Shown: in pieces, positions 15,524 to 51,188 of the stretch
Layout of the letters: each line of letters opens with the position of its first letter
How positions within the stretch are numbered: the first letter of the stretch is position 1
Assembly (NCBI GenBank): GCA_964344235.1
Contig: CAYFMJ010000001.1
Location: forward strand, 283,020 to 347,019
Reading direction: 5' to 3'
From: an uncultured Methanosarcinales archaeon
GTDB taxonomy: Archaea > Nanobdellota > Nanobdellia > Woesearchaeales > GW2011-AR9
DNA length: 64,000 nucleotides
Translations under genes and position numbers: made by a program
Notes under the pieces: generated by a model
What the model saw: only the letters and a program-made list of their open reading frames with translations
Told to the model about the DNA's origin: nothing
Database searches by the model: none

Positions 15524-15552
15524 GAGGAATATTTGGCGGATGATAAAGTCTA

Positions 15553-17630: not shown

Positions 17631-17638
17631 GGAACTCT

Positions 17639-18339: not shown

Positions 18340-18388
18340 TGGTGTCCTGTTAAGGAAAATTTATAAATCACGTCTCAGAGAGGCAGAT

Positions 18389-19117: not shown

Positions 19118-19130
19118 AAGGTTTGGAGTT

Positions 19131-27443: not shown

Positions 27444-28361
27444 TTAAAATTTATTTTTTAAGAATTTTAGGTCAACTTCTTCACGCCAGAATAAATTTCT
27501 TGCTTTGGCAAATGTGTTAAGGTTCTGCAGGTATAGACTCTGTTTTTGTGGGTCTTTAAACTCGTTCTCTAAGTTTGCTATTTCTTCTAGTTCAACTTTA
27601 ATTGTATCTTTATAGTCTTGATTTGTAAGGTGTTTTAGCATTGACTTATATTGTTGCTTTTTTAGATTAATCCCATATGAAATATATTTTGCATTAAAGC
27701 TTGTTTTCATTCCAGCAATATTACTATCATATTGGCGATAATAAGTATAGCTATTTTTGAGGAGTTTTGCTTTATGACCCTGTGCTAAGAGAGAGGAAAA
27801 AATCCACCAATCAGTTACTACTAAGTTTGAAGTTATTGGAAATATTTTTTCAAGAAGATTAGCCCTTATTGCAGTGTTATTTAGGCCACAAAGGTTTTTT
27901 TTAATGTTATCCACAAATGAAATCGTATCTGACTTAAGTTTTTCTTGATACCAAGGTCCACTTTTTTGTTTTCCATTTTCATATGTTGGAATGAGATCAG
28001 TAAATACAATTTCATCTGTTTGGAGAGCTTCTCTTGTTTTAGCTACTCGGTCTTTGTCAAAATAATCATCAGTATCGGTGAAAATAATCACTTTAACATT
28101 TTCCTTTTTAACTTTCTCTTGGAGTGAAGGGATAATGTATTGCCAAAGAGTGGGACCTTTCGCTCCCGGGTTTGGAACTGGAAGAATTTGAACTTTTATT
28201 TTAGAGTTTATTCGTGCAGTGACCTCTTCTGTGTTAGGATAATTATTGTCAAAAAGCCAAAGTTCGAAGTTAGTATCGGTTTGGTCATTAATGGCTTTTC
28301 TGTATTGGGGCCAAAATGGGCGCATTATGGGATACAGAACGCCAACAACTATTAATTTCAT
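27444..28361 (-). CDS. putative glycosyltransferase (GT-A-like, DxD motif)
   Basis: 305 aa. IIFTDTDDYF is a DxD-type motif. The gene is AT-rich. I cannot assign a family with confidence. Confidence 0.4.
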   Translation of the reverse strand: MKLIVVGVLYPIMRPFWPQYRKAINDQTDTNFELWLFDNNYPNTEEVTARINSKIKVQILPVPNPGAKGPTLWQYIIPSLQEKVKKENVKVIIFTDTDDYFDKDRVAKTREALQTDEIVFTDLIPTYENGKQKSGPWYQEKLKSDTISFVDNIKKNLCGLNNTAIRANLLEKIFPITSNLVVTDWWIFSSLLAQGHKAKLLKNSYTYYRQYDSNIAGMKTSFNAKYISYGINLKKQQYKSMLKHLTNQDYKDTIKVELEEIANLENEFKDPQKQSLYLQNLNTFAKARNLFWREEVDLKFLKNKF

Positions 28362-29053
28362 TTTCTCTTTCTCTCGTCTTTAAAATTGACTGGCTTTTGA
28401 TAACGAAATAATCTAGCATTGGGCATTACCATTACAGAGTTATCTTCAACGTCGGTTTGAATAATTGCTCCCGCTCCCGTTAGAACATTGTTCCCAATCT
28501 TTCTTTTTTCGATAATGCGAGTGCCCATACCAAAGAAGTTATAGTTACCAATAGTAACATTTCCACCAATGATTACACTCGTACAGAAATTACAGAAACT
28601 TCCAATATACGTGTCGTGTCCAATGACACAATAGCGGTTGAAGTAGTTAAAATCTCCAATTTCAATATCTGTTGTAAGGTTCGTTCCAACATTTATAATA
28701 TTTCCCTCTCCGAACTTTACTCCTTCGGCGTCATACAAAACTGAGGGATGAATTAAGTTTGGAAATGTAATGGAACACTGATTATACTGTTTAATCTTTT
28801 GTACAATTGTGGCCGTGGTTCGAGGTGTTCCGTTGGCGACGGCGATACAAATCTCGCTTTTACCCCGGAGGGCAGCATCGAGTGATGGAAATACTGGTAA
28901 GCCGTACACTTTTCTTCCTTTAAATTTCTTAGAGTTGTCAACAAATCCTAAGAGGTTGTAACCACCAATCTGTTTAATAAGCCAGGCAATGTGACGCCCT
29001 TGGCCTCCTGCACAGTAAACGATAATATCTAATGGGGGAACGGTCTCGACCAT
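28358..29053 (-). CDS. NeuD/PglD/PglB-family sugar acyltransferase (N-terminal Rossmann-like + LbH domain)
   Basis: 231 aa. N-terminal IIVYCAGGQGRHIAWLI...LGFVDN, then hexapeptide repeats (IGDFNYFNRYCVIGHDTYIGSFCNFCTSVIIGGNVTIGNYNFFGMGTRII). Confidence 0.75.
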   Translation of the reverse strand: MVETVPPLDIIVYCAGGQGRHIAWLIKQIGGYNLLGFVDNSKKFKGRKVYGLPVFPSLDAALRGKSEICIAVANGTPRTTATIVQKIKQYNQCSITFPNLIHPSVLYDAEGVKFGEGNIINVGTNLTTDIEIGDFNYFNRYCVIGHDTYIGSFCNFCTSVIIGGNVTIGNYNFFGMGTRIIEKRKIGNNVLTGAGAIIQTDVEDNSVMVMPNARLFRYQKPVNFKDERKRK

Positions 29054-29147: not shown

Positions 29148-29426
29148 TTAGACTTTTTTTGTAAGAATAAAGAGGTTATCTTTGATAGGCCTGAAGCCTT
29201 TTTGCTTTAAGAAAATGATAATTGATTTAATTGAAGTTAGTCTCGAGACTTCTGCTGGCGGAATGTTTTCTTGTAAGATCTTTTCAAGGCTGGTAATAAT
29301 ATCAAAGTGAGCAATGGAGTCCCATTGAGTATGAGTATCGCATGACGTCTCTATGGTGATCTGGCTAGAAGTAAGGTGTAACACTTTCTGAAATAACTGT
29401 TTTAAATTAATCGAGCTTATTACCAT
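29148..29426 (-). CDS. acyl/peptidyl carrier protein-like (4-helix, phosphopantetheine-attachment Ser)
   Basis: The Met at 29426 gives a ~92-aa protein. WDSIAHFDIITSLEKIL matches the ACP DSL...L serine motif. It overlaps the 3' end of the ligase gene by ~20 nt. The ORF track entry begins earlier, at 29501. Confidence 0.55.
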   Translation of the reverse strand: MVISSINLKQLFQKVLHLTSSQITIETSCDTHTQWDSIAHFDIITSLEKILQENIPPAEVSRLTSIKSIIIFLKQKGFRPIKDNLFILTKKV

Positions 29427-30939
29427 TGTATTCACCTGCAAGAAACAGTTCACGTACTTTGTTTCGTAAAATCTTCCCCCCTCCCCCGAGAGGGAAATCA
29501 TCGATGCTATATATCTCCTCTGGACATTTGTAACTGGCTAAACTATTATGACAAAATTGAACTACACTTTGAGGCTGCCCCTGCTTGCTCGATTCTTTAA
29601 TTTTAACAAGCCCGATTATTTTTTGATTTCTTATCGGATCTGGGATGGCAATGGTCACTGCATTCTCAACTGTGGGGTATGCATAAAGACATTCATCGAC
29701 CTCTCTAAGGGAAACGTTTTTTCCCCCGACAATTGCAATGTCCTTCTTTCTTCCTTTTAAAAAAAGGAATTCTTCCTCATCTACATAACCTAAATCTCCC
29801 GTGTCAAACCAGCTATCTTTGATGACTCTGTTAGTGTTTTCTATATCATCAAGGTACCCTGGCATTAAGCCTTCACAGCGCACCCAAATTTCACCTTCTT
29901 GTTTGGGTTGTGTAATGACATTTCCTTGCGTGTCTCGTATTTGATATTCCGTCATAACCGGTTTGCCGACAGACCCTTTCTTACGCTTCTTTCGCCCATT
30001 AACAAACAGCTGACCAGCGGTCTCACTCATCCCGAGAGAGTCAATCATTGGAAGGTAATAAATTGCTTCAAACTTTTCTTGTACTGAAGCAGGCAGAGGC
30101 GCAGAAGATGTACGAACGAAATCCATGGAGGATATATCAAACTCTTCTTTTTGTATTTCTGAGGCGACAATGATAGAATAATGTGTTGGGGTAGCGTTCA
30201 TCCATGTAGTTTTATATTGGTCCATTAAGTTGAACGTAGTAAAAGGAGTGAACATGCCTTGTTGGTAAACTGCACTACCACCTGTTCTTATAACAGACCA
30301 GATTGTAAAGATTTGTCCATTTGTACCAGAAAAAGGAGTTAGTGCGAGCAAACGATCTTTTGGTTTTAGTTCTAAAGAAATTTCCAAAGATTTTGCTCCC
30401 CAAAGAACATTTTTATGGGTTGATATGATCCCCTTCGGGCTTCCAGTACTTCCAGAAGTATAAAGACAAATGGCGGGGTCATCTTCCTCTATAACTCGAT
30501 CGCTCTTTGATGTAATACCAGATGAAATGGCTTTATCAATGGGGGCGATAAGCACCTGTGTCATTGAGTTCTTAACTTTTTGGGCGAATGAAATATGTTT
30601 GGGGTGAACAAGCAAGCAGTCTGCTCGGTATTTTTTGATTAGTTCTTCTTTTTCATCGTCAAGTAATTTTTCATCAGCCCATAGAACTAATGAACCGTGT
30701 GTGATCGCTCCAAAGTAAGCTAAGTAACCAGCTTTAGAGCGCGGTGATAGAATTAAAAGACGACTCTTTTTTGGAATATTGTTTCTGTCTAAATAGTTTG
30801 CTATAACATTAGATTTCTCAAAGAGCTCTCTATAACTAATTTCTTCGTTATCTTCTGGAAAAATCGCACAAATTTTATTTTGATACTTTTGGGCTTGTAT
30901 CTTCACTAATGCAGGGAGTGAGCGAATTGACATAATCAT
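29407..30939 (-). CDS. AMP-dependent synthetase/ligase (adenylate-forming enzyme; acyl- or aminoacyl-carrier protein ligase)
   Basis: 510 aa. Present: YTSGSTGSPKGI (A3/P-loop), WFDTGDLGY (A7), GRKKDIAIVGGKNVSLREVD (A8). Confidence 0.85.
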   Translation of the reverse strand: MIMSIRSLPALVKIQAQKYQNKICAIFPEDNEEISYRELFEKSNVIANYLDRNNIPKKSRLLILSPRSKAGYLAYFGAITHGSLVLWADEKLLDDEKEELIKKYRADCLLVHPKHISFAQKVKNSMTQVLIAPIDKAISSGITSKSDRVIEEDDPAICLYTSGSTGSPKGIISTHKNVLWGAKSLEISLELKPKDRLLALTPFSGTNGQIFTIWSVIRTGGSAVYQQGMFTPFTTFNLMDQYKTTWMNATPTHYSIIVASEIQKEEFDISSMDFVRTSSAPLPASVQEKFEAIYYLPMIDSLGMSETAGQLFVNGRKKRKKGSVGKPVMTEYQIRDTQGNVITQPKQEGEIWVRCEGLMPGYLDDIENTNRVIKDSWFDTGDLGYVDEEEFLFLKGRKKDIAIVGGKNVSLREVDECLYAYPTVENAVTIAIPDPIRNQKIIGLVKIKESSKQGQPQSVVQFCHNSLASYKCPEEIYSIDDFPLGGGGKILRNKVRELFLAGEYNGNKLD

Positions 30940-31021: not shown

Positions 31022-31405
31022 TTACTTTCTTACGTACTTCTTGGAAACTATTGCAAATGCAAGCGCATATTCTGGAGTATGTGATAAAGAGACCTTTACC
31101 TGAAAACGATTTTGTATTTCGGGATAATGGATGAATACATTTGGTGAGCCATCTTCTTTTTTTTTTACTTCAATACATTTGAGGTCACCTTTAAAATCAA
31201 TCTTTAGAACAAGGCCCATCAAAGCTTTAAAAACTGCTTCTTTGGTTGCAAAACGGGCTGCTAGATGTTGAGCTGGGTCTGTTTTTGAAAAGCAATAATC
31301 AAGCTCAGCCTGCCAGAATATTTTTGTGAGAAAGTTTTTATTTGATAATTTCTCTTTAAATCTGGAGATTGCACAAATATCTGTTCCAATAGCGAGGACT
31401 TCCAT
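31022..31405 (-). CDS. acpS: holo-[acyl-carrier-protein] synthase (AcpS-type 4'-phosphopantetheinyl transferase)
   Basis: 127 aa. AIGTDICAISRF, LAARFATKEAVFKALMG, IEVKKKEDGSPNV and VSLSHTPEYALAFAIV align block-for-block with bacterial AcpS. Confidence 0.8.
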   Translation of the reverse strand: MEVLAIGTDICAISRFKEKLSNKNFLTKIFWQAELDYCFSKTDPAQHLAARFATKEAVFKALMGLVLKIDFKGDLKCIEVKKKEDGSPNVFIHYPEIQNRFQVKVSLSHTPEYALAFAIVSKKYVRK

Positions 31406-31631: not shown

Positions 31632-32414
31632 ATGGAACAAGAAATCTATTTTCCAACATCAACATCCGATTTGTTATTTGGAAAGCTTCAATGTCCAGAA
31701 GTTGGTGATTTTGGGCCAAAAAGGCGAAAGCTTGTTATTCTATCTCACGGTTATGGTTCGCATTTAGATGCTCGGACAACGCAAATTGGTGTCGTTGGTG
31801 CTCTCTATAAGCGGGGAATTGATACTTTTAGATTTTCGTTCTGGGGAAGCAGCCATTCTGCAGGCAATTTTGAGAAGAATACCCTTACGCAATATATCTC
31901 TGACCTTGAGGCTGCAGTGCGTTATGCGCGAGAAGTTCTGGGATATCACCACATAAGTTTGTATGGCTTTAGTTGTGGAGGTACTATTTCGCTCCATGTT
32001 GCAGCCAAAGATCCTACTATCGAAAAGGTTGCAGTTGTCGCTCCAGTTCTTGATTATCCTGCACAAAGAAGACGTAGACTTGGTGATCTTGTAATGAAGC
32101 ACTGGGAGGAGAGTGGAAAGTTAGAGTTTCCCAATTATGGTGAGGAAAAACATGTTCATTATTACTTCATAGAAGATGCTTACCAGCATATTCTCTTAGA
32201 TGAAGAAGCGACGGTTAATAGGTTGTTAGAAATCTCCCAACCAGTATTACTTCTCCATGGGACGGCGGATTCAGAAGTCCCCTTTTCGCAAAGTCTTCGT
32301 GCTCACGAATCCTTGCCTTCTTCGGAAGTTAGATTATTTGAGGACGATGATCATTGGCTTAGAGCGAATCGTCAGGAGGTTGATGGGTACATTGCAGAAT
32401 GGTTGTCTCAGTGA
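31632..32414 (+). CDS. alpha/beta-fold serine hydrolase
   Basis: 260 aa. The nucleophile elbow is YGFSCGG (GxSxG). A His is present near the C-terminus (DDDHW). Confidence 0.65.
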   Translation: MEQEIYFPTSTSDLLFGKLQCPEVGDFGPKRRKLVILSHGYGSHLDARTTQIGVVGALYKRGIDTFRFSFWGSSHSAGNFEKNTLTQYISDLEAAVRYAREVLGYHHISLYGFSCGGTISLHVAAKDPTIEKVAVVAPVLDYPAQRRRRLGDLVMKHWEESGKLEFPNYGEEKHVHYYFIEDAYQHILLDEEATVNRLLEISQPVLLLHGTADSEVPFSQSLRAHESLPSSEVRLFEDDDHWLRANRQEVDGYIAEWLSQ

Positions 32415-32417
32415 ACC

Positions 32418-32978
32418 TTATCCTTGTTTCTTAATCTTTCTAATATCTATATAATCTATCCCTAAATTCTTAGCAGCATTCTCATCAGATGTTGAATTTC
32501 CGATAAAAAGAATTTTTGGGATTGCAGTGTCGAAATATCTTCTAATTATCAAAAACCCTTCTGAGTTTGGTTTTGTAAAATTAACTTGGTCTTTACCAAC
32601 AATTAATCCAATTCTTTTTCCAATGGCGAATTTTTGCAAGACTTCTCTGATAACTGAAGACTGATTTGATGACCAGACCACCTGTGGCCCAAGGAATTCT
32701 TTCATGATACTCTTGCACTTCTCATTTTCTTTAAAACCATTAACTCCTTGCGATTCGAACTGGTAGGCGATTTCATTAAACTCTTTCTTCCCTACTTCTC
32801 CTAATCTTTCATACACAGTGCTTGCACCACCCGAGTAACTCGTGAAATCAATATCCATGTTGTGTTTCTCTAAGAAATGGTTATGTAATGCCGACCGAAG
32901 AGCGGCCCAATCAACATCTAATTTTCCGATTGTGCCATCAAAGTCCAAGATCAGCAAGTCATATCGTTGGAAATCCAT
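32418..32978 (-). CDS. HAD-superfamily phosphatase
   Basis: 186 aa. Motif I is LILDFDGTIG (DxDGT). Motif III is a K upstream of GNSTSDENAA. Confidence 0.7.
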   Translation of the reverse strand: MDFQRYDLLILDFDGTIGKLDVDWAALRSALHNHFLEKHNMDIDFTSYSGGASTVYERLGEVGKKEFNEIAYQFESQGVNGFKENEKCKSIMKEFLGPQVVWSSNQSSVIREVLQKFAIGKRIGLIVGKDQVNFTKPNSEGFLIIRRYFDTAIPKILFIGNSTSDENAAKNLGIDYIDIRKIKKQG

Positions 32979-33990
32979 TTTCTTGGTATGTTTTTATTGC
33001 GTTCTTTAAATGTGTTATCTTTCGTTGCAATCCAGGAAGCAATTCATCAATAAAATCACTATTGAGCGAATAGTTTAATAAATCTTCCACCCATATACGG
33101 ATTGCGACAATGGGGATACATTCTTTTTCTTGTGCTGTTAAAGGTAATTCTTGGTTGTATGTTTCAATGTAGTGGGTTGCTCTTTCTTGATTAAATGGTA
33201 TGATGTTGCCTTCTGCGTTCCTCGTTGAGAAACACCACATCGCGTAAACTACATCTCTGATATGAGGAATATACATCATCTCGTCTGGGTCAAGCAGTGC
33301 ACTTACCTCGCCTTTTTGATAAATAACGTTTCCTGGCCAGATGTCTTTATGCGCAACGATTTTTGGTAAAGCAGGGTATTGTTTTTTATCAACCAATGCT
33401 ATTTGTTGCTCAACAAGCGGGAGCACTTCTTGTACTCGCTGACGAAACATGCTTGCTGTAGCGCTTTTTGCTTTCTTGCGTACTTCTTGTAACGTTACCT
33501 GTAACCGTTCCCGGCGGAGGAAAATGCTTCTTGTCTCTTTTATGTGCATAACATTGGTGGGTGCCATCGTAGTGAGTGTGCGGTTTAGTGTTGCATGGAA
33601 CTTTGCCATGCTTTGGACTTCAGGTATTATGCTTTGAAATGAACTGCCTTCAATAAAAGGGTAGAGAACGTAATAGTTCTCATTATACTTGACATAGATA
33701 GTATTTTCATTTGTTGTTAGATAGCTGACGAGTGGAATATTCTCGTTCATTACATGCTGCATGAAATGTTGCAAGCCTTTAAAGTAGTGTTCTGGAGTGC
33801 ATAATGCAAAATATTCTTTAGGGATTTCTTTCAGCACGAATTTTGTTGTTCCCTCTGTTAAAAGATGAAGCGAACTTTTTGCATTAAATTTTATGTGAGT
33901 TGATGAACTAAGATTTTTTAGGTTTTTAGAATATGATCTGTTGATGTTTTGTAGCAAATTTTGGGATATCATTGTTTTTGATTTATACAA
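32959..33990 (-). CDS. APH/ChoK-fold small-molecule kinase (aminoglycoside phosphotransferase-like)
   Basis: 343 aa. The catalytic loop is HKDIWPGNVIY (HxDxxxxN). A DPDEM block (DxD-like) follows. Confidence 0.6.
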   Translation of the reverse strand: MYKSKTMISQNLLQNINRSYSKNLKNLSSSTHIKFNAKSSLHLLTEGTTKFVLKEIPKEYFALCTPEHYFKGLQHFMQHVMNENIPLVSYLTTNENTIYVKYNENYYVLYPFIEGSSFQSIIPEVQSMAKFHATLNRTLTTMAPTNVMHIKETRSIFLRRERLQVTLQEVRKKAKSATASMFRQRVQEVLPLVEQQIALVDKKQYPALPKIVAHKDIWPGNVIYQKGEVSALLDPDEMMYIPHIRDVVYAMWCFSTRNAEGNIIPFNQERATHYIETYNQELPLTAQEKECIPIVAIRIWVEDLLNYSLNSDFIDELLPGLQRKITHLKNAIKTYQENGFPTI

Positions 33991-34045
33991 TAATTACACT
34001 TTTAAATAATTCTTTCCCTGTTTCTTGACTTTCTTTTCATAATCT

Positions 34046-34053
34046 ATTTAAAC
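34046..34053 (+). promoter_or_regulatory. TATA box (TATTTAAA) for neuB-like gene
   Basis: Its centre lies ~26 nt upstream of the ATG at 34076. Confidence 0.45.
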
Positions 34054-34075
34054 CGTTCTTTCTCGTTTTTGCAGA

Positions 34076-35122
34076 ATGGACTCAGAGATATATCAGCGGT
34101 TGACAAATGAGACGAAACCTTTTGTTCTGGCGGAAATTGGTTCAAATCACATGGCCAGTATGGAGACTGCTAAAGAGCTTATTGATGCAGCGGTTGAAGC
34201 TGGCTGTGATGGTGTTAAGTTTCAATCACTTGGTTGGAATGATTGGAATTCGAAAACGGTTTTTCAAAAAAGACGTAACTATACTGCTCCTGGCTTGCTA
34301 GTGGTTGGGCTAGAGGCCACTAATAAGTTACTTGAACTCTCAAAAGAGCAACATCACGAATTAAAAAGGTATTGTGATGAGAAAGGCATTCTTTTTTCTT
34401 CAACTCCCGCAACTAACGCCCAAATAGATATGCTTGTTGATGAGCTGAAAGTTCCATTCTTAAAAATTGCTTCAATGGATTTAACAAACCACGATTTCCT
34501 ACGCTATGCTGCATCGAAGGGCGTTCCGATTGTTCTTTCAACGGGGATGGCACTACTTCATGAAATTGCCGAGGCTGTTGAAGTAATTAAGGGAACCGGT
34601 AATGATCAATTGATTCTTCTACATTGTGTGGCAACATATCCTACCCCTCACGATTGGGTTGATCTCCAAAACATCTCCATGTTAAAAGATACTTTTGGTT
34701 TTCCAATTGGCTTTTCAGATCACACTTTGACAGCGGATATCCCAATTGCATCAGTGGCGTTGGGTGCTTGTTTTATTGAGAAACATTTTATGTTAGAAGG
34801 GCAGGAGTGTCGTGAAAAGAAAGTATCCATTACTCCCTCACAAATGAAGCGATTGGTAGAAGGGGCACATAATGTTGGTATGGCAATGGGAACGTATCAT
34901 AGACGCTTAACTGAGCAGGAAGTAATACGAAGAGGATGGATGCGTCGAGGGATTTTGGTTCGAAAAGATTTACCTGCAGGACATATTCTTACGAGGGAAG
35001 ATTTAGTCTTTAAGAGACCAAGTGGTAAGATCCCCGCCAAGGATTGGAAGTATGTTGTTGGGAGAAAGCTTAAGGAGGCAAGGGAAGCAGATGATGTTCT
35101 TGGTTTAGAGGATTTTGAGTGA
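34076..35122 (+). CDS. neuB: nonulosonic acid (sialic/pseudaminic/legionaminic acid) synthase, NeuB family with C-terminal SAF domain
   Basis: 348 aa. VLAEIGSNHMASMETAKELIDAAVEAGCDGVKFQS matches the NeuB N-terminal block (EIGxNHNGS...KFQ). The C-terminal ~60 aa form an antifreeze-like/SAF domain. Confidence 0.85.
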   Translation: MDSEIYQRLTNETKPFVLAEIGSNHMASMETAKELIDAAVEAGCDGVKFQSLGWNDWNSKTVFQKRRNYTAPGLLVVGLEATNKLLELSKEQHHELKRYCDEKGILFSSTPATNAQIDMLVDELKVPFLKIASMDLTNHDFLRYAASKGVPIVLSTGMALLHEIAEAVEVIKGTGNDQLILLHCVATYPTPHDWVDLQNISMLKDTFGFPIGFSDHTLTADIPIASVALGACFIEKHFMLEGQECREKKVSITPSQMKRLVEGAHNVGMAMGTYHRRLTEQEVIRRGWMRRGILVRKDLPAGHILTREDLVFKRPSGKIPAKDWKYVVGRKLKEAREADDVLGLEDFE

Positions 35123-35260
35123 GAAAGGTAAGAATTATCCTTAAGACATTGCCCAACAATCTCTATGTTCTGTGACAAGTCTCTAAAAAATCCCGAGTGA
35201 TGTTACGTTGTTCTATAGTTCCACAACGCTTATTAGTTTTCCTTTATCAGGTGGCAGATT

Positions 35261-36367
35261 ATGAATATACTTGTTACTGGAACGCACAGAGAAGCGACAA
35301 ACACCCTCACTCCTGTTGTAAAAGAATTGGTGCGAAGGGGTCATGATGTGACGGTTTATGCAACAGGGAATGAGCGGGAAGCGGCAGGATTTAATGGACT
35401 TGAATATGAACAGCAGATCCCTACTTCTGATCAATACATAGTGTTAGTTCAAGGTTATGATCTTGTTGTCGCAGGCGTGTCAGGGCCACAAACTCCAGAT
35501 GGATATGTCATTCGCGCCGCAAGGGATAGAGGAATACCTGTTGTTGGTGTTGTTGGGCAGAATCGAGTGTTTAATGTTCGTTTTGGTACTGTTGATGATT
35601 TACCTGATCATATTACTGTTCCAGGGGAAGATTCATACGATTTAGTGAGGGAAGCTGTCGGTGAATGTCTGGCAACGGAAATAATCCGAAGAGCGGTTCC
35701 GGTTGGCTTTCCAGCGTTTGATCATTACGCAGCAACGCGTGAGCGTTTTACTTCTAAACGGCGAGAAGCATTTGTTGCTGAACTTGAATTGGAAGGGCCG
35801 TTTGTTTTTTACCCCTCTGCAAATTTAGACCCAAACACCGACTACATGCGGAGATCGACACGAGATCCTGTTGACAAACGGCAACGGTTTGAGTATGCTC
35901 TACGGCTTACTGAAGAAACATTTAGAGTGGCGTCAGACTTAGGTTTGCATATGGTTGTAAAGCCTCATCCTGGTGAGCAGACAAGACCCAGACACACTTT
36001 AGGGCTTGCGGAACGATTTGGCGTTACATATTTGAGCTACGATCGGTGTGGGACCCAGGATTTACTCCTTGCATCTGCTGTAGTAGTTGCAGGAGAGAGC
36101 GGCTGTTTAAATGAAGGGTGCCTCTTTGATAGAAATACAGGGGCGTTGTTTCCTGGATTGGATGAGGATGTTGTACCCCAATTCTCTGCGACGAAAACGG
36201 GAGCGATTCCTTACACTTTCGAATGGGAGGGTATTGGAAGGATCCTTACTGAGCTTACTTCCTCAGATGAAGATGTACAACGGAGACTTGCTGATCAAAG
36301 AAAAAGGTTTTCTGTTGATGGAAAAGGCGCACAGCGTGTTGCAGATTTAGTTGAGAGAGTGCTCTGA
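35261..36367 (+). CDS. GT-B-fold protein with HP motif (PseG/TagF/KpsS-like glycosyl- or glycerophospho-transferase/UDP-sugar hydrolase candidate)
   Basis: 368 aa. The N-terminal Rossmann-like block is MNILVTGTHREA...GHDVTVYATG. The C-terminal half carries VVKPHPGE. It looks GC-richer than the flanks by eye. Confidence 0.4.
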   Translation: MNILVTGTHREATNTLTPVVKELVRRGHDVTVYATGNEREAAGFNGLEYEQQIPTSDQYIVLVQGYDLVVAGVSGPQTPDGYVIRAARDRGIPVVGVVGQNRVFNVRFGTVDDLPDHITVPGEDSYDLVREAVGECLATEIIRRAVPVGFPAFDHYAATRERFTSKRREAFVAELELEGPFVFYPSANLDPNTDYMRRSTRDPVDKRQRFEYALRLTEETFRVASDLGLHMVVKPHPGEQTRPRHTLGLAERFGVTYLSYDRCGTQDLLLASAVVVAGESGCLNEGCLFDRNTGALFPGLDEDVVPQFSATKTGAIPYTFEWEGIGRILTELTSSDEDVQRRLADQRKRFSVDGKGAQRVADLVERVL

Positions 36368-36395
36368 GCAAGTTGAGTATTCCTTGGGGTGTTCT

Positions 36396-37469
36396 TTAGG
36401 GGCGAGTTGGTATTACTGGTTGCCCTGTTTTTGATCTGAAAATATCTGTATGCCCAACATAGTCTATCTTTCCTGTCTTTATCATTTGGAAAGCAAGATC
36501 TTTGAATCTAGCACTCCACTCTCTACGAAATCCTTCTGCTCCATAGTAGTTCGCAGCAGAGCCTACGGTGTGAGCTACACGTAAAAGAAGTTCTAATTGC
36601 TGTGTTAGCGGACCTTCATGGTTGTACGTTCCTCCCTCACTTTGATGGCCCCTTCGTAACGCTTCTTGTCCAGCAATCAATGTTTCATTGTCAAAATAGC
36701 TAGTGAACAGTGAATGGACGAGGTACATTTCTTGTTCCACCGGTCCTGCTTGACTCCATTCAACATCGGGAAAACTGGGATTACCTGCACTGTCAACGAG
36801 AATATTTCTTGGATGTAAATCAGCTATTGTGAACACGGGGGTGATATGGCTTTCAACTTCTACTATACTCGCAAGGCTTCTCTCGAGAAAACGATTTACT
36901 TCTTCTACTTCCCTTTCAGTGTATGCTGGGGATTGTGTCAATCTGGCTAATCGATAAACAATAAATTGTTTTGCTCTTGCTGTGAACTGTGGGGGGCCTT
37001 GCACACCTTCGGGATTGATGTCACCAAATTTTTCGTATGTTTTGCGGTGGGCTTTTGCTAATTCCATCCCTAGTCTTTCTAAAGAGGCAAGAAAAACGCC
37101 TAATGAATAATCGTGTTCTCTCAAATATTGATCCCATGTCTTTCCAGTGAGTTTTTCTGCAACAAGGAATCGTTCATCGTCAACTTTGAAAGGACCTCTC
37201 ATTTTTGGAGTACGAATCCCTAATTCATTCCTGAGAAAGTTACACAGATAGCCTTCTCTCTCTAGGGAAATTACTCCCCCGTAATGTGAATCTCTTTTCA
37301 CCCTGTGCTTGTCTAATTTTGTAGCTCTTTCAAATCGTACGACAACTTCTTCACCGGAATCTAACGTTACCTCAAAGTTATCATGAGATCGACCTTCAGA
37401 AATTGCGGTAATGGTGTCAACAGAATGTCCTGCTTGTTCAAGTAGTCTCTGAGCACGTTGTTGGTCCAT
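36396..37469 (-). CDS. APH-fold kinase (phosphotransferase enzyme family)
   Basis: 357 aa. IADLHPRNILVDSAGNPSFPDVEWS is the HxxxxN catalytic loop followed by a DVE(W) metal-binding block. The gene is translationally coupled to the upstream cytidylyltransferase gene. Confidence 0.6.
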   Translation of the reverse strand: MDQQRAQRLLEQAGHSVDTITAISEGRSHDNFEVTLDSGEEVVVRFERATKLDKHRVKRDSHYGGVISLEREGYLCNFLRNELGIRTPKMRGPFKVDDERFLVAEKLTGKTWDQYLREHDYSLGVFLASLERLGMELAKAHRKTYEKFGDINPEGVQGPPQFTARAKQFIVYRLARLTQSPAYTEREVEEVNRFLERSLASIVEVESHITPVFTIADLHPRNILVDSAGNPSFPDVEWSQAGPVEQEMYLVHSLFTSYFDNETLIAGQEALRRGHQSEGGTYNHEGPLTQQLELLLRVAHTVGSAANYYGAEGFRREWSARFKDLAFQMIKTGKIDYVGHTDIFRSKTGQPVIPTRP

Positions 37470-38161
37470 TATCCTCTTTTCCGCATTAAGAATTCTGTTA
37501 TGTCAAAGTCGTGTTGTGTATCAATGTCGGTTGAATGCTCAACCGGCATAATATAAGGGTACGTTTTATCCGGGTACTCTCCACTTTCATCAAAAAGAAC
37601 AGATGGTTTGAACACAAACATATTCCCATTGTGAAGGTACACTTTGTCGTTGTCTTGTCGGTTCCCGAAGACTCCCTTTCTGTTGCTCCTAGGTCTTATA
37701 GTTCCATCGTCTTGAATTATCTTAATTCTGTTAGGGTGGACATCAGTTTCACACACTCCTATGACAGCATTTGCATTGTTTTTGAGAAAAATCTCAATGG
37801 CATTGTCAATATCCTGGGCTGTCCGCAAGGGTGAAGTTGGCTGTAAAATAACAACAATGTCTGGGTTGTACCCTGTCTCTTTCTGTAATCGGTCAATTGT
37901 GTAACGGTAGGCATCTGTTGCATCTGCATCATCTGTTGCTAATTCAGCTGGCCGCATAAATGGAATTTCGATGTCATAATGAGAACAAACTTGAGAGATC
38001 TCATTACTGTCAGTTGATAAAACCAGTTTGTTGATAAACTTTGATTTATTCGCTGCTTCAATAGAATAGGCAACCAGCGGTTTGCCATTTAGGGGCTTAA
38101 TGTTCTTTCCAGGAAGGCCTTTTGATCCTCCGCGAGCTGGAATAATTGCTAAAATATTCAT
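37469..38161 (-). CDS. neuA: N-acylneuraminate (CMP-nonulosonate) cytidylyltransferase, NeuA/KdsB family
   Basis: 230 aa. NILAIIPARGGSKGLPGKNIKPLNGKPL is the NeuA-type N-terminal signature. Confidence 0.85.
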   Translation of the reverse strand: MNILAIIPARGGSKGLPGKNIKPLNGKPLVAYSIEAANKSKFINKLVLSTDSNEISQVCSHYDIEIPFMRPAELATDDADATDAYRYTIDRLQKETGYNPDIVVILQPTSPLRTAQDIDNAIEIFLKNNANAVIGVCETDVHPNRIKIIQDDGTIRPRSNRKGVFGNRQDNDKVYLHNGNMFVFKPSVLFDESGEYPDKTYPYIMPVEHSTDIDTQHDFDITEFLMRKRG

Positions 38162-38258
38162 TCTGTTATCACTATTTATGTTTATTATAAAGCTTTTGGA
38201 AGATTAATTCTTTCTATATTACAACTCCATAATTCTTATAAATTAATCCTTAACCACA

Positions 38259-40439
38259 ATGATTAAAAAGATGGATAAACCAGCAATCATAGGTGGAAGA
38301 AAAGAGTTTGAAGAGTTTTTACCGATAGTAAGACCTTCTTTACCAACACTCTCTCAGATAAGCGTTCAAGTAGAAGAAGTTCTGGCGAGCGGCATGGTGA
38401 CGAATTTTTCGAAGTATACTCAACAGCTGGAACGTGAGTGTGGAAATTATCTAAACGTTAATTTTAGTCTTTCTCAACCAAACGCCACCACTGGATTACT
38501 GTTACTCTGTAAAGTGTTAGGTCTTACGGGAGAAGTTATTGTACCAAGTTTTACTTTCTCAGCGACTGTTCATGCACTGATTTGGAATGGCCTTACACCA
38601 GTTTTTGTTGATATTGACCCTGAAACGTTTAACATTGATCCAAAACTCGTGGAAGAAAAGATAACAGACAAGACCTCTGCCATTTTAGGAGTACACATTT
38701 TTGGTAATCCCTGTGACGTTAAGGAATTAGAAGAAATAGCGAGGAAACATGATTTAAAATTACTCTTCGATGCTGCTCATGCCTTTGGTTCGGAGTATCA
38801 AGGAAAGAAAATCGGAGGCTGTGGTGATGCAGAAGTTTTTAGTATGAGCGGAACTAAATTATTAGTGACTGGAGAGGGAGGTTTAATTACCACTACAGAT
38901 AAAGATTTGTCTGACAAGCTTAGGTTAGCAAGGAACTATGGGGATCCGGGAAATTATAATTGTGTTTTTGTTGGTTTTAATGGAAAAATGTCTGAGTTTT
39001 CAGCGATTATTGGCTTGCAGTCTCTGAAAGATATTTCTGGTCAAGTTAGGAATAGAAATATTATTAGAAATATTTTCGAACAAGAGTTACGAAGTGTTCC
39101 GGGAATTAGTTTTCAGAAGATAAGAGAAGGAAATATCACATCAGTGAAAGACTTTTCAATTATAGTTGATAAGAATGAATTTGGCATCAGTAGAGATCAA
39201 TTGGCTAAGTGTTTAGCAGCGGAGAACATTCATTCCAAAAAATATTTTTATCCTCCAATTCATTTTATGGATGCTTATAGAGAGTTTCATGAACAGTATT
39301 ATGGGAAACTACCACACACGGAAAAAGTCTCCTGGAACATTCTTTGTTTGCCGATCCATAGTACTATGTCGGAAGAGCAGGTAAAGAAGATATGCAATGC
39401 AATTAGGAGAATTCAGCATTTTCATCAAGAAATTGTTCAGGAAGCGGAAGATATTAGTTCAGTGTTGATAACAGGGGGCGCAGGGTATGTGGGAGTTGTC
39501 TTAGCAAGGCAGTTGTTAGAGCAAGGGTATAAAGTTAAAATTCTGGACCAGCTTATTTTTGGTAAAGAGCCTTTACAAGAGATTGAAGGACATCCAAACT
39601 TTAGCTTGGAAGTTGGTGTGGTTGAGGATAAATATGTGGTAGAAAAGAGTTTAGAGGGGATTGATGCAGTTATTCATTTGTCTGGTTTATCCAATGATCC
39701 TTCTTGTGAGTTAAACTCTGATTTGACGAAGAAATCAAATATAGATGCAACGAAAGTTCTTTTACAGTTTGCAAAAGCAAAAGGCGTAAAGAGATTTATC
39801 AATGCTTCTTCATGTAGTGTGTATGGTTTTACAAATGGTGTTTTGGTGGATGAACAAAGTCCGCCAAACCCTCTGACTGCTTATGCAAAATCGAAAGTAA
39901 AAAGTGAGGAGTTAGTTCTCGCTGAGTCAGAGGAAGATTTTGTGACAGTTTGTTTACGAAAATCAACGATTTATGGCCCTTCACCAAGAATGAGGTTTGA
40001 TCTTGTTATTAACACAATGACGGGAATGGGAATGAGTGAGGGCAAGATTGTTATCAATGGTGGTGAACAATGGCGCCCTTTCTTGCATGTTGAAGATGCA
40101 GCGAGTGCGTATCTGTTTATGTTACAAGCACCTAAAGAACAAATCAATGGGCAAGTGTTCAACGTAGGGAGTAACTACCAAAACATTAAAATTATAGATT
40201 TGGCGCATAGAATTGCTGCTGTTCTTCCTGGCGTAAAGGTTGAGCAGAGTCACTCTCCCGATAAAAGGAGTTATTTAGTTAGTTTTGATAAAATCAGTGC
40301 ACTTGGCTGGAAAGCTACATTTGATATCGAAGATGGAGTTCATGGTGTGAAAAAACTATTTGATGAAGGAAAAGTGAAGAATTTTCGCGATTTAAATTAT
40401 TTTAACATAAAGAGAATGATTTCCTATTTGAATGTTTAG
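38259..40439 (+). CDS. bifunctional fusion: N-terminal DegT-family aminotransferase + C-terminal NAD-dependent sugar-nucleotide dehydratase/epimerase (PseC/LegC-PseB/LegB-like)
   Basis: 726 aa. Residues ~1-380 carry the DegT blocks (VIVPSFTFSATVHAL, FSMSGTKLLVTGEGG). Residues ~395-726 carry VLITGGAGYVGVVLARQL (GxxGxxG) and YAKSKVKSE (YxxxK). Confidence 0.8.
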   Translation: MIKKMDKPAIIGGRKEFEEFLPIVRPSLPTLSQISVQVEEVLASGMVTNFSKYTQQLERECGNYLNVNFSLSQPNATTGLLLLCKVLGLTGEVIVPSFTFSATVHALIWNGLTPVFVDIDPETFNIDPKLVEEKITDKTSAILGVHIFGNPCDVKELEEIARKHDLKLLFDAAHAFGSEYQGKKIGGCGDAEVFSMSGTKLLVTGEGGLITTTDKDLSDKLRLARNYGDPGNYNCVFVGFNGKMSEFSAIIGLQSLKDISGQVRNRNIIRNIFEQELRSVPGISFQKIREGNITSVKDFSIIVDKNEFGISRDQLAKCLAAENIHSKKYFYPPIHFMDAYREFHEQYYGKLPHTEKVSWNILCLPIHSTMSEEQVKKICNAIRRIQHFHQEIVQEAEDISSVLITGGAGYVGVVLARQLLEQGYKVKILDQLIFGKEPLQEIEGHPNFSLEVGVVEDKYVVEKSLEGIDAVIHLSGLSNDPSCELNSDLTKKSNIDATKVLLQFAKAKGVKRFINASSCSVYGFTNGVLVDEQSPPNPLTAYAKSKVKSEELVLAESEEDFVTVCLRKSTIYGPSPRMRFDLVINTMTGMGMSEGKIVINGGEQWRPFLHVEDAASAYLFMLQAPKEQINGQVFNVGSNYQNIKIIDLAHRIAAVLPGVKVEQSHSPDKRSYLVSFDKISALGWKATFDIEDGVHGVKKLFDEGKVKNFRDLNYFNIKRMISYLNV

Positions 40440-41204: not shown

Positions 41205-42131
41205 ATGACAAAAACAATGAGAGACCAACTTCGTGCTGATGGTGAATTGGCGTTGGCAGGCCTTGTTCATCCAGAGATTATTCGTGGTGACCCTGCGTCT
41301 TGTACAGCAGAATTTAGCAAATTAATTGTTAATCTTTGCCTCCGTGTGGAAGATGATGATTATGTACGACGTATTACAGAAGACGATGTTGATCGAGTGA
41401 TGCTTCATGCAGATTCCCAGATTGGAAGACCAGAAGCCCACCGTTCTCACATTATCACAACAGGGTATTTGTTCCAAAGTCTCACAGCAGCTCTTCTTGA
41501 TACACATCCAGACTTAGATTTACCCCATCCGGATATTGCGCGTGCTATGGGTTGGCTACACGATCTTAATATGATGTTTAGTAGTTATCAACGAGGAGGT
41601 CAATTGTCGAAGGAATTAGATTTGTTTTTCTTAGGTGCTATGAATGGCTGGACACGGATAGCAGATCATATGGCGATGCATAGTGCTTATTTTGAGATTG
41701 GACAGCTTCTTACTGGGGAGTATCAATTTCCAGAAAAAAATGAAGCGTATGAAGGTATGCGGGAAGTTCTAAGGGGAGGGGGCCCATTATCACTTACTGC
41801 TATCACAGAGCGGTTTAGAGGATATCATCGAGGTACTGATAACATGCCGCTACTCGCCTTAACAGTGGTTGATTATATGGAACGTGGTTTAAGAACCTTT
41901 GATCCTACGAAGATAGAAGCGGACTTTGCTGCACGATCGGAGGATGTTCTTTGGCGCTACCATGGGAAACATGTAGAAGCAGAAATGGCGCCACCGCCTC
42001 TTGGCGTTGCGTTAATGTCGGGGGGATTAACGAGAATAAAAGGGTACAAAGACATAGTTAGAAAACTTCTTTCTGATGATATTGAAGCAATTGATAGGTT
42101 ACGAGAAACAACTCATCTGTTTAAGAAATGA
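41205..42131 (+). CDS. hypothetical protein, possibly HD-domain-like
   Basis: 308 aa. His/Asp residues (HRSH, WLHDL, DHMAMH) are spaced roughly like an HD metal-binding scaffold. It is the first gene of the phosphonate-like operon. Low certainty. Confidence 0.35.
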   Translation: MTKTMRDQLRADGELALAGLVHPEIIRGDPASCTAEFSKLIVNLCLRVEDDDYVRRITEDDVDRVMLHADSQIGRPEAHRSHIITTGYLFQSLTAALLDTHPDLDLPHPDIARAMGWLHDLNMMFSSYQRGGQLSKELDLFFLGAMNGWTRIADHMAMHSAYFEIGQLLTGEYQFPEKNEAYEGMREVLRGGGPLSLTAITERFRGYHRGTDNMPLLALTVVDYMERGLRTFDPTKIEADFAARSEDVLWRYHGKHVEAEMAPPPLGVALMSGGLTRIKGYKDIVRKLLSDDIEAIDRLRETTHLFKK

Positions 42132-43538: not shown

Positions 43539-43635
43539 AGTACCAATATAGTGGACTAATTTAGAGTTCAAAGGTGGCCTTTGAAACAATCACTTTTACA
43601 TATGATTTATAAAGAGGAATACGTGTCGAACCATT

Positions 43636-46364: not shown

Positions 46365-47780
46365 ATGAAAAAGAACACATTAAATGGTCGAAAGTTTGTT
46401 TTTTTCTCTGGGTCGTCGGGGCGTGACAAGATGATGATAAAAATAGCGAAACAGCTTGCTTCACGAAATGGTGTGAAAACTCACTTCCTGACGTTTACAC
46501 CTGGCCAAACAGTTGATTATTTTGTTTCAGAGGGAATTAAGAGCGATTGTGTTACATCTGTTCTTCACCTCCCTAATCCTGCTGTGAAGCCAGACATGGC
46601 TTTCTTGAAGTCTAAGGAGATAGAATATGGGGTTCAGTTCTTTGACATCTGGCAAATTGCTGCGGCTAGAAGCAAAAAACGCCATAACATAAAGTCCACT
46701 AAGGTGCTGGCCCAAATGGAATTCTTTGTTCGAGAGCTTGAACACTTTATTAAAAAGGTTAAGCCCGATTATCTTGTTGTTTCTGGGGTTTCATCGTATG
46801 TTACCCTCCTTGCATACAAAATTTTTATGAAGAAGGGACTTCCTGTATTAGAGATAACAAACCCACGTATTCCTAATCGGTTTGCAATTGATGATAAACT
46901 GAAATCCGAGTGGCCCTTGCTTGTGAAGAAATACGAAGAAATAAAAAACACCTCTTTGAAGCCGCGGCAGAGGAAAGAAGCGCTGGACTTCATGCAGTCT
47001 TTCTATGTGAAACCTTTAAAGTCAGATAACCAGACTACAGAGAACCAGGACTTCTCACAAAGATTTGCGAGATACTTTAGACACATAAAAACATTGTATT
47101 ATAGACGCCGCCTTCCAGCATTAAGGGTTTTTTGGACTCCTATTAAAGATTTTTTCTTAAAGAATTCTTCACGGTTTGAACTTCCAGTAGATGGAGAAAA
47201 ATTTGTCTTTCACCCTTTACAAATCCAACCAGAGGTTTCTACTCTCCTTAAGGGCAAGTGGTATGTTAATCAAGTAGCCTTGATTGAAAATATCGCCAAA
47301 AGCCTTCCTTGCGATTACAAGCTTTATGTTAAAGAACATGTTAAAAATTATTCCCAGCGCCCCCCAAACTTTCATCGTGATATTAAGCGATTCCCTAATG
47401 TTCGTTTGATTGCCCCTTCCGCTGACACTATTTGGTTAGCCAAAAAATGTTCGCTGGTTACGACGATTACTGGAACGATTGGTTGGGAAGCAATCTTGTT
47501 ACGCAAGCCGGTTTTAACGTTTGGACAGGTCTTTTATAACCAGTTTGAAGAAGTCGTGTCTGTTGTGGATATTAAACAGCTTCCCAACATTATAAAAAGC
47601 AAACTTGATACTGTTGTTGATCTTGAGAAAACACTGCAATTTGTTAGTGCAGTACAACAGTCAACGTTTCCGGGAATAAGAGCTCTTCCAACTGACTGTC
47701 GAGATCGCTCATTAAAAGATGAGAATATCTTAGCGCTCACTCAAGGGTTAGAACAATATATTTATGCAATGAACCTTTGA
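46365..47780 (+). CDS. capsule-polysaccharide-biosynthesis family protein (KpsS/KpsC-like, possible beta-Kdo/nonulosonate transferase)
   Basis: 471 aa, soluble. The C-terminal half (FVFHPLQIQPE ... TITGTIGWEAILLRKPVLTFGQ) resembles the Capsule_synth fold with its HP motif. Assigned by pattern memory only. Confidence 0.35.
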   Translation: MKKNTLNGRKFVFFSGSSGRDKMMIKIAKQLASRNGVKTHFLTFTPGQTVDYFVSEGIKSDCVTSVLHLPNPAVKPDMAFLKSKEIEYGVQFFDIWQIAAARSKKRHNIKSTKVLAQMEFFVRELEHFIKKVKPDYLVVSGVSSYVTLLAYKIFMKKGLPVLEITNPRIPNRFAIDDKLKSEWPLLVKKYEEIKNTSLKPRQRKEALDFMQSFYVKPLKSDNQTTENQDFSQRFARYFRHIKTLYYRRRLPALRVFWTPIKDFFLKNSSRFELPVDGEKFVFHPLQIQPEVSTLLKGKWYVNQVALIENIAKSLPCDYKLYVKEHVKNYSQRPPNFHRDIKRFPNVRLIAPSADTIWLAKKCSLVTTITGTIGWEAILLRKPVLTFGQVFYNQFEEVVSVVDIKQLPNIIKSKLDTVVDLEKTLQFVSAVQQSTFPGIRALPTDCRDRSLKDENILALTQGLEQYIYAMNL

Positions 47781-49525: not shown

Positions 49526-49593
49526 GTTTACCTTATCTTTTCATTTTTCTGTTTTGCTTGCGTTTATAAGTTTTATTAAGTTACATACCAGTG

Positions 49594-51075: not shown

Positions 51076-51188
51076 CTCTGCCGGGCTTTGAATTTTGTTT
51101 ATAAAGATTATGAATAAAGAATGAAAAAAAGAAAGATTTATATACGAAATGTCTCAGAAATAATAAATTAGTAAAACGAGAGGTATCA

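Follow-up and report, generated by a model that had tools for sequence, protein, structure and literature searches.

The window analysed in this study is a stretch of 64,000 nucleotides from a contig of an uncultured archaeon (CAYFMJ010000001.1, positions 283,020 to 347,019), and since it encodes a 924-amino-acid AglB/STT3 protein, several PMT_2 proteins, flippases and many glycosyltransferases, it is an archaeal N-glycan or surface-glycan locus. Its sequence matches a segment of a 140-kb metagenome contig (PRJEB17505) without differences, and a 412-kb NCBI contig also encodes its proteins. Positions 32418-40439 form the core of a module for the biosynthesis and transfer of a nonulosonic acid (NulO), in which two kinases and a HAD phosphatase-like protein stand beside the synthase NeuB and the CMP-synthetase NeuA. 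An earlier note on this DNA had listed seven open reading frames (ORFs) here, and their coordinates and domains were all borne out by the ORF list and by Pfam and NCBIfam matches:

32418..32978, minus strand: HAD-IA (C1-capped) phosphatase-like protein, 186 amino acids (aa) (Pfam HAD_2, E = 1e-11)
32959..33972, minus strand: kinase 1 (K1), a small-molecule kinase of the APH/ELK fold, 337 aa (Pfam APH, E = 1e-11); the ORF of the note ran over 32959-33990
34076..35122, plus strand: NeuB-family nonulosonate synthase (Pfam NeuB, E = 5e-71, plus SAF)
35261..36367, plus strand: HP-motif protein (KPHPGE), 368 aa, without a Pfam family
36396..37469, minus strand: kinase 2 (K2), APH fold, 357 aa (Pfam APH, E = 3e-10)
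37469..38161, minus strand: CMP-nonulosonate synthetase of the NeuA/PseF/LegF type (CTP_transf_3, PF02348, E = 8e-27)
38259..40439, plus strand: fusion of a DegT aminotransferase with a short-chain dehydrogenase/reductase (SDR) (DegT, E = 1e-101; SDR 'Epimerase', E = 7e-44)

That these genes constitute a NulO module agrees with both the gene content (NeuB, NeuA) and the recurrence of the module in independent metagenomes, in which the same genes are found together repeatedly, an arrangement far beyond chance. Related loci, recognised through K1 or NeuB and labelled L004, L013 and so on below, carry names such as 'Candidatus Nanoarchaeia archaeon', 'Candidatus Woesearchaeota archaeon' and 'archaeon SI039_bin19', so that the window, too, probably comes from an archaeon of the DPANN type. 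The note was also right in assigning the two kinases and the HAD protein to the module. K1 was recovered in seven distinct lineages at 27-45% identity, and NeuB lies within approximately 1.2 kb of it in all seven, usually divergent and across a short spacer, which fits adjacent pathway steps. The HAD gene directly follows K1 in five of these lineages, its start overlapping the 3' end of K1 by 20 nucleotides in the window; it is fused to K1 in the 542-aa protein P0003 and to a GNAT domain in L022. The coupling of NeuA and K2 is conserved too, and the link between kinase, phosphatase and NeuB is real. The arrangements in the seven lineages are as follows:

Window: K1-HAD, divergent from NeuB across a 103-bp intergenic region
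L004 type: NeuA, hydrolase, NeuB and K1-HAD in one operon and one direction
L013: K1 adjoins NeuB, with K2 convergent
L020: NeuB, then K1 and HAD
L021: NeuA-K2, HAD-K1, NeuB
L022: K1, HAD-GNAT fusion, NeuB
L028: K1, with a TIM-barrel-NeuB fusion 1.1 kb off

In L013 (12132-13182) and L028 (1612-2602), both of which are without HAD, a Pol-beta-type nucleotidyltransferase and a small partner ORF, MNT/HEPN-like, adjoin K1.

Homologues and the public gene call place the start of K1 at the ATG at 33972, and the TTG at 33990 is probably not a start. The protein matches Pfam APH with 45 bits (cut-off 23) and carries the catalytic motif HKDIWPGN together with DPD, both invariant in its homologues, so that it belongs among the APH/protein-kinase-like proteins, while its matches to the models of homoserine kinase type II (63 bits, cut-off 271) and CotS (53 bits, cut-off 173) stay below both cut-offs. 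A word-indexed search of 5.8e9 proteins returned only three relatives of K1, one of them the K1-HAD fusion, and an exhaustive HMMER scan of 1.84e9 representative proteins yielded approximately 10 clusters at E < 1e-30, below which the score drops from 226 to 92 bits. Judged by its sequence, K1 is a dedicated small family. Profile comparison with the PDB matched APH(9), homoserine kinase type II and NahK. A predicted model (predicted local distance difference test score, pLDDT, 58; predicted template modelling score, pTM, 0.62) retrieved through Foldseek only generic APH-fold small-molecule kinases, none at E < 1e-3; they include the actinobacterial glucosamine kinase 6HWL, a precedent for an APH-fold hexosamine 6-kinase, but fold matches to such a model are uninformative as to the substrate.

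The HAD protein has its motifs intact (DFDGT, SSN, K136 and GNSTSD, the last being GDS in homologues), all four are conserved in five homologues, and an insert of approximately 85 aa forms a cap between motifs I and II, as in phosphatases of the HAD superfamily. Its closest solved proteins are generic sugar-phosphate and phosphoglycolate phosphatases (HAD-IA), with beta-phosphoglucomutase matching more weakly, so that it resembles sugar-phosphate phosphatases more than mutases. Where one polypeptide combines kinase and phosphatase, as in the K1-HAD fusion, some reaction has to take place between the two, and the enzyme invariably encoded nearby is NeuB.

K2 matches Pfam APH with 41 bits (cut-off 23) and shows the motifs ADLHPRN and PDVE, which are invariant in its homologues. 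The word-indexed search found no match for K2 but itself, and tblastn recovered homologues only in L013, L021 and L027 (32-45% identity), all of which are NulO loci. Comparison with the PDB sequences, both singly and as a profile, found nothing, and the possibility that K1 and K2 are close paralogues was rejected (hhalign probability 6%). Translational coupling of K2 to neuA, as the note proposed, was confirmed: the stop codon of neuA and the start codon of K2 share the sequence TAATG, and the K2 start overlaps neuA again in L021. In L027, K2 lies inside an operon of post-NeuB enzymes (a GNAT, an SDR, ApbA and a NeuA-DegT fusion).

NeuB is a clear member of its family (PF03102, E = 5e-71; PF08666 (SAF), E = 5e-7) and aligns with Neisseria meningitidis NeuB over residues 13-329, but it scores below the NCBIfam equivalog cut-offs for NeuB_NnaB (290 bits, cut-off 400) and PseI (236 bits, cut-off 340). 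Its closest relatives are from uncultured archaea (45-61% identity), followed by those of Bacteroidota and Deltaproteobacteria (42-45%). Several of the closest relatives carry an extra 2H-phosphoesterase domain of approximately 190 aa (PF13563; P0020-P0029; L023 10001-11581; L024 1758-3338), which is N-terminal of NeuB in the five mappable cases and has a degenerate first HxT motif (HIP). I rejected this domain as a substitute for the HAD protein: its loci are without kinases and HAD, the HxT motif is degenerate, and there is no homologue in the window. Other fusions in related loci join NeuA to a GFO oxidoreductase (L022 2877-4631), NeuA to DegT (L027 13573-15564) and a xylose-isomerase-like TIM barrel to NeuB (L028 2610-4349), which suggests that NulOs are oxidised and aminated after synthesis and that an isomerase or epimerase feeds NeuB.

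The fusion at 38259-40439 had been read as an aminotransferase joined to a dehydratase of the PseB/LegB type. The fusion and the aminotransferase stand, the dehydratase does not. A full-length fusion with 54% identity is present in the Nanoarchaeia metagenome-assembled genome of L013, so that an assembly artefact is not the explanation, and the DegT half is closest to DesI (2PO3, 255 bits), with perosamine synthase at 191 bits. The SDR half, on the other hand, has the motif ASSCSVYG...YAKSK where dehydratases have TDE, TDK or STDKA, and its best PDB match is 6VO6/6VO8 (157 bits vs. 92 for the next), with which it shares the motifs SPRMR(F/L)DL and PDKRxYLVS. I take 6VO6 to be the C4-dehydrogenase Cj1427, in line with the depositor's molecule name. 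Cj1427 is a GDP-heptose C4-dehydrogenase that releases the 4-keto sugar (PMC10680097). On these similarities the SDR half is predicted to be a nucleotide-sugar C4-dehydrogenase and not a 4,6-dehydratase, and the fusion would most likely produce a nucleoside diphosphate (NDP)-activated 4-amino-4-deoxy sugar with the 6-hydroxyl kept. This matters for the kinases, as the product of a 4,6-dehydratase is a 6-deoxy sugar that is not phosphorylatable at C6, an internal inconsistency in the note. With an SDR that is not a dehydratase the inconsistency is removed: the 6-hydroxyl is available, and a NulO with the 9-hydroxyl kept is predicted. Among the loci without K1, L023 and L026 carry STDKA-type enzymes; where the pathway SDR is intact, that of L023 is an STDKA dehydratase of the PseB/PglF type, while that of L027 is not.

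The best NCBIfam model for NeuA is PseF (158 bits, below the cut-off of 206), and its CTP_transf_3 domain places it in the expected family. The neighbouring HP-motif protein had been considered a hydrolase of the PseG/LegG type, a suggestion that found no support. Pfam and NCBIfam gave no PseG or MurG signal, a sequence-level signal in the PDB was absent, and the sole family signal is a weak but near full-length match to the NCBIfam model of BFO_1060 (E = 0.003), in which the D/E-D/E-G motif was not located. BFO_1060 is an orthologue of the transferases for pseudaminic (Pse) and legionaminic (Leg) acid of Tannerella, a family that has been validated genetically (PMC5420450). With the Tannerella forsythia transferases Tanf_01245, TFUB4_00887 and BFO_1060 (PMC5420450) the protein, at most a putative member of that family, shares the HP motif. 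A homologue with 36% identity adjoins neuA in the Woesearchaeota locus L024. The single-sequence AF2 model reaches a pLDDT of 39, too low to confirm a GT-B fold. By its sequence matches the protein is probably a CMP-nonulosonate-dependent transferase, which is likelier than PseG. The GC content of its gene (0.46) and of K2 (0.42) is higher than that of K1 (0.375) and the HAD gene (0.364), and the L004-type locus has neither the HP-motif gene nor K2 between neuB and neuA, which hints at a separate acquisition of these two genes.

Outside the core, the following genes bear on the proposed pathway:

27444..28361, minus strand: GT-A-like protein, approximately 305 aa, with FTDTDD and YRQH motifs (weak Pfam Glycos_transf_2 match)
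28358..29053, minus strand: PglD/NeuD-type N-acyltransferase (PglD_N and Hexapep; NCBIfam NeuD_NnaD, 155 bits)
29148-29426, minus strand: carrier protein of an acyl-donor set (domain matches, as for the next three)
29407-30939, minus strand: AMP-ligase of the acyl-donor set
31022-31405, minus strand: phosphopantetheinyl transferase of the acyl-donor set
31632-32414, plus strand: alpha/beta hydrolase of the acyl-donor set
46365..47780, plus strand: KpsC/KpsS-like 'Capsule_synth' protein (Pfam Capsule_synth, E = 2e-10)

The PglD-like acyltransferase and the GT-A-like protein (approximately 300 aa) accompany NeuB in most loci examined; homologues of the latter adjoin the PglD-like and NeuB genes in L004, L021-L024 and L027, and a distant one lies directly upstream of NeuB in the bacterial Sediminibacterium locus (L025), in which a PglD-like gene was not detected. 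L013 has neither of the two. The acyl-donor set is also found in L004, while L021 has BKACE instead. KpsC/S-like homologues with 34-51% identity stand beside NeuB or NeuA in L023, L026 and L027, making the KpsC/S-like protein of the window a candidate second nonulosonate transferase.

How the nucleotide is released is less obvious, as neither a NeuC/LegG nor a PseG was recognised among the Pfam and NCBIfam matches in the window. The Epimerase_2 protein at 19047-20231 was rejected as NeuC/LegG, being a non-hydrolysing WecB equivalog (334 bits vs. 68 for NeuC). Because no such enzyme was recognised, the GT-A-like protein at 27444-28361 is proposed as a candidate for the missing step and may be a hitherto undescribed enzyme of the pathway, for instance an NDP-sugar hydrolase. 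The pairing of a 4,6-dehydratase with an aminotransferase, by which canonical Leg and Pse pathways are recognised, does not occur in the module. A LegB/RmlB-like dehydratase gene at 20191-21186, 17 kb from the module, could in principle feed the NulO pathway. It is part of a second amino-sugar set (16626-21731) that consists of a short DegT (334 aa), a GT2, WecB, the LegB/RmlB-like dehydratase and an LbH acetyltransferase; beside it lie an archaeal UDP-GlcNAc 3-dehydrogenase and its aminotransferase (23688-25732).

What is observed is which genes are present and how they are linked, and it is from this that I infer everything further, each pathway step included. The best single reading, which I nevertheless hold only tentatively, is a route in which the kinase acts before NeuB and the phosphatase after it. 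The fusion would oxidise a nucleotide-activated N-acetylhexosamine at C4 without 4,6-dehydration, in the manner of Cj1427, and transaminate it to an NDP-4-amino-4-deoxy-N-acetylhexosamine that keeps its 6-hydroxyl. The PglD-like enzyme would then N-acylate the new amine, with the acyl group supplied by the AMP-ligase and carrier-protein set, and the free aldose would be released, possibly by the GT-A-like protein. K1 would phosphorylate the 6-hydroxyl, NeuB would condense the 6-phosphate with phosphoenolpyruvate (PEP) to a nonulosonate 9-phosphate, the HAD protein would remove the phosphate, and NeuA would make the CMP-sugar, which the HP-motif protein, the KpsC/S-like protein or both may transfer to the glycan. 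K2, coupled to neuA, could act on the nonulosonate or on its CMP ester. The predicted product is a 5,7-diacylamido-3,5,7-trideoxy-nonulosonate with the 9-hydroxyl kept. I favour this route because the adjacency of K1 and NeuB is invariant, K1 and HAD occur as a fusion, the L004 operon has a corresponding order, the 6-hydroxyl is available and the HAD protein is more phosphatase-like than mutase-like, and because there are precedents. The note had called such a route animal-type, but it is not confined to animals: Bacteroides thetaiotaomicron makes the nonulosonate Kdn via phosphorylated intermediates with BT1714 and BT1713 (PMC6200933). A broader proposal, doubtful when taken as a whole, is that archaea of the DPANN type make an undescribed NulO, a '9-hydroxy-legionaminic/pseudaminic' acid 16 Da heavier than Leg5Ac7Ac, for which the C4-oxidase/aminotransferase fusion replaces the 4,6-dehydratase and the last steps proceed via 6- and 9-phospho intermediates by means of an APH-fold kinase and a HAD protein, as an independent archaeal reinvention of the logic of kinase, NANS and NANP.

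Several observations weigh against the phosphorylated route, some of which concern NeuB. The substitution E134D has been proposed as a marker of synthases for phosphorylated substrates (NANS-type), and in eukaryotic NANS R314 of the SAF domain is replaced by V (PMC8208679). The window NeuB carries D at the E134 position (KIASMD), but I rejected this as evidence for a phosphorylated substrate, as D is present in 107 of the 122 scanned sequences, bacterial ones included, while the NeuB beside the K1-HAD fusion has E; moreover, the window NeuB keeps R314 (FKRPSG), unlike animal NANS. A comparison of K1-linked with K1-less NeuB for group-specific residues gave a less acidic alpha2-beta2 loop as the sole difference, one that is confounded with phylogeny and that L013 and L028 do not show. 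As far as its residues can tell, there is no convincing adaptation of NeuB to a phosphorylated substrate. As to the other enzymes, K2 is needless in the scheme, K1 resembles anomeric kinases (NahK, 5-methylthioribose (MTR) kinase) as much as 6-kinases, L013 and L028 have K1 without HAD in the available sequence, and NANP is absent among the 54 PDB sequences that match the HAD profile at an E of 0.1 or better. That the SDR is a C4-oxidase is read from 36% identity to a single characterised enzyme, and the association of SDR type with kinase is imperfect: in L027 the SDR is of the window's type but is accompanied by K2 alone, and L026 has no kinase and only fragments of this type of SDR. The note itself had stated that its proposal would be refuted if the kinases grouped with antibiotic-resistance APHs or with homoserine kinases unrelated to sugars, and NeuB with PseI/LegI clades. 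Part of this was indeed found: the proteins below the K1 score gap, its nearest relatives, all match homoserine-kinase-II/CotS models, albeit under the cut-offs of those models, and the nearest bacterial NeuB lies in a Leg-type cluster with a PtmE-like nucleotidyltransferase.

The strongest alternative, a serious rival even though I consider it unlikely, follows the logic of the heptose pathway. K1 would be an anomeric kinase of hexosamine 6-phosphate drawn from central metabolism and the HAD protein would remove the 6-phosphate, so that HexN(Ac)-1-phosphate arises without a phosphomutase, ready for activation with a nucleotide, and NeuB uses an unphosphorylated sugar. The GDP-heptose pathway (GmhA/HddA/GmhB/HddC) uses a kinase and a HAD phosphatase, with HddA/HldE and GmhB acting on heptose, and DPANN genomes are often short of standard sugar-activation genes, which I count in favour of this alternative. 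Kinase and phosphatase would be consecutive, suiting the K1-HAD fusion, the HAD-GNAT fusion of L022 would mirror the acetylation of glucosamine 1-phosphate, the anomeric kinases NahK and MTR kinase are among the detectable relatives of K1, and 6VO6, the closest solved relative of the SDR and presumably Cj1427, comes from the GDP-heptose pathway. However, K1 always adjoins NeuB and not the early enzymes DegT and SDR, and no sugar-1-phosphate nucleotidyltransferase is found near K1 in L004, L013, L021 and L022; PtmE-like CBS-nucleotidyltransferases are found instead in the K1-less L025 and L026, and other nucleotidyltransferases in L027. The HAD protein, too, is a capped HAD-IA and not of the GmhB-type HAD-IIIA. 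Alternatively, one or both kinases may phosphorylate the finished nonulosonate or its CMP ester (e.g. at O-9, O-8 or O-4), yielding a phospho-nonulosonate or a handle for substitution, while the HAD protein edits or recycles the phosphate. Such tailoring, rather improbable for the module as a whole, would fit K2, whose translation is coupled to that of neuA both in the window and in L021, and which lies within the operon of post-NeuB enzymes in L027. The NeuA-GFO and NeuA-DegT fusions of relatives point to extensive modification after NeuB, Kdo-kinase model matches occur among the neighbours of K1, and the Kdo kinase KdkA is a protein-kinase-fold precedent for the phosphorylation of an ulosonic acid. 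A decorating kinase fused to a phosphatase, as in K1-HAD, would undo its own work, however, and phosphorylated nonulosonates are not known from archaeal glycans, which I count against tailoring.

I would give little credence to a third scheme, akin to kanosamine synthesis by NtdABC, in which phosphate serves as the handle: K1 would phosphorylate a free hexosamine, oxidation, transamination and acylation would take place on the sugar phosphate, and the HAD protein would remove the phosphate just before NeuB. The PDB matches of the aminotransferase half do include NtdA (4K2B, 122 bits), a member of the DegT family whose substrate is a sugar phosphate, but this half is far closer to DesI and perosamine synthase, which work on nucleotide sugars (255 and 191 bits, as given above), and the SDR is closest to a GDP-sugar enzyme. 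That no nucleotide-releasing enzyme of the NeuC/LegG/PseG type was recognised agrees with such a scheme, as does L013, where both the GT-A-like and the PglD-like gene are missing although K1, K2, the fusion, NeuB and NeuA are present, and the HAD-GNAT fusion would fit acylation followed by dephosphorylation; most K1-bearing loci, on the other hand, do contain the GT-A-like DxD protein, which implies a nucleotide sugar. Finally, the kinases and the HAD protein could have an unrelated function, for example in the metabolism of an acyl side-chain, in phosphonate- or choline-type head-groups or in regulation, and be merely co-located in a large glycan island. This is very improbable, as K1, HAD and NeuB are adjacent also on short contigs and where phosphonate genes are lacking, and are so whether the locus has the AMP-ligase set (window, L004) or BKACE in its place (L021), even if the window does contain phosphonate genes (a Fom1-like CyTase-PEP mutase and an Fe-alcohol dehydrogenase) and the best family models are homoserine kinases for K1 and phosphoglycolate phosphatases for the HAD protein.

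NANP is a capped HAD_2-type protein, as is the HAD protein of the window. The window shares with animals (GNE kinase, NANS and NANP) and with the B. thetaiotaomicron proteins BT1714 and BT1713 the proposed logic of sugar 6-phosphate to nonulosonate 9-phosphate to nonulosonate (PMC6200933). Unlike in these routes, the kinase has an APH fold and not a ROK fold, the HAD protein is neither detectably close to NANP nor of the cap-less BT1713 type, NeuB falls outside the group of animal NANS, and the predicted sugar is a 2,4-diamino hexose and not N-acetylmannosamine or mannose. As in the Leg and Pse pathways of Campylobacter jejuni, Legionella pneumophila and Halorubrum sp. PV6 (PMC6137143), a 4-aminotransferase, a PglD-type N-acyltransferase, a NeuB-family synthase and a CMP-synthetase are clustered with genes for glycan assembly, but the module is without a 4,6-dehydratase of the PseB/LegB/PglF type, the nearest solved relative of its SDR being 6VO6. 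Neither a NeuC/LegG nor a PseG was recognised, and the module has in addition two APH-fold kinases and a HAD protein, which are part of no Leg or Pse pathway described so far. The sole characterised archaeal pathway, that of Halorubrum sp. PV6, follows the canonical scheme (LegB, C, H, G, I and F), and its description mentions neither a kinase nor a phosphatase (PMC6137143). The GDP-heptose pathway with Cj1427 (PMC10680097) resembles the module in the affinity of the SDR to 6VO6 and in the combination of a kinase and a HAD phosphatase in one sugar pathway; it differs in that the window has an APH-fold and not a GHMP kinase, a HAD of type IA and not IIIA, an SDR fused to an aminotransferase, and no GmhA or HddC. 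With the APH/ELK kinases NahK (4OCJ), MTR kinase, glucosamine kinase (6HWL), homoserine kinase II and the spore kinases CotS/CotI/YtaA, which are the only detectable relatives of K1, there is agreement in fold and in the HxDxxxxN...D motifs, but the similarity is marginal (92 bits or less, profile E of 1e-6 or worse), and K1 and K2 each form a small family of their own.

In the literature searched, neither APH-fold kinases nor HAD-IA enzymes are described for any nonulosonate pathway, and this archaeal arrangement is not described either. What is new is the pairing of kinase and phosphatase, the fusion of C4-oxidase and aminotransferase, and a product that is probably a 9-hydroxy diamino sugar, while the product family and most of the enzymes are familiar. 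Sialic-acid-like sugars shape recognition at the cell surface. If the proposed route holds true, small symbiotic archaea would employ enzymes outside the described pathways, namely kinases of two families of their own, a HAD phosphatase and a C4-oxidase fused to an aminotransferase, their product may be a new sugar, and the synthesis of nonulosonates via phosphorylated intermediates would have more than one origin.

Several further features of the window lie outside the NulO module proper. Genes of the phosphonate type adjoin it (42237-44775 and 47819-52898), the first group comprising a Fom1-like cytidylyltransferase-PEP mutase fusion (42237-43538) and the Fe-alcohol dehydrogenase (43636-44775); a phosphonopyruvate decarboxylase was not found in the window. 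A B12-radical SAM enzyme is encoded at 51189-52898 and a second one at 7367-9079, and sulfatase-family and type I phosphodiesterase-family proteins are also found near the phosphonate-type genes. Between a methyltransferase and the PEP mutase lies an ORF of 308 aa (41205-42131) without a Pfam or NCBIfam match. It carries an H...HD-like motif (WLHDLNMM) and stands out from its neighbours by its elevated GC content (0.43) and its richness in arginine and glutamate. Three FemAB-like/GNAT proteins (Acetyltransf_6), two polysaccharide deacetylases and an asparagine-synthase-like amidotransferase (14468-16602, 60890-61942, 13561-14496 and 61946-63939) suggest an aminoacyl or amide decoration of the glycan. 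The GC skew is positive in nearly all 2-kb bins of the window and reaches a cumulative value of 5.0, even over genes on the minus strand.

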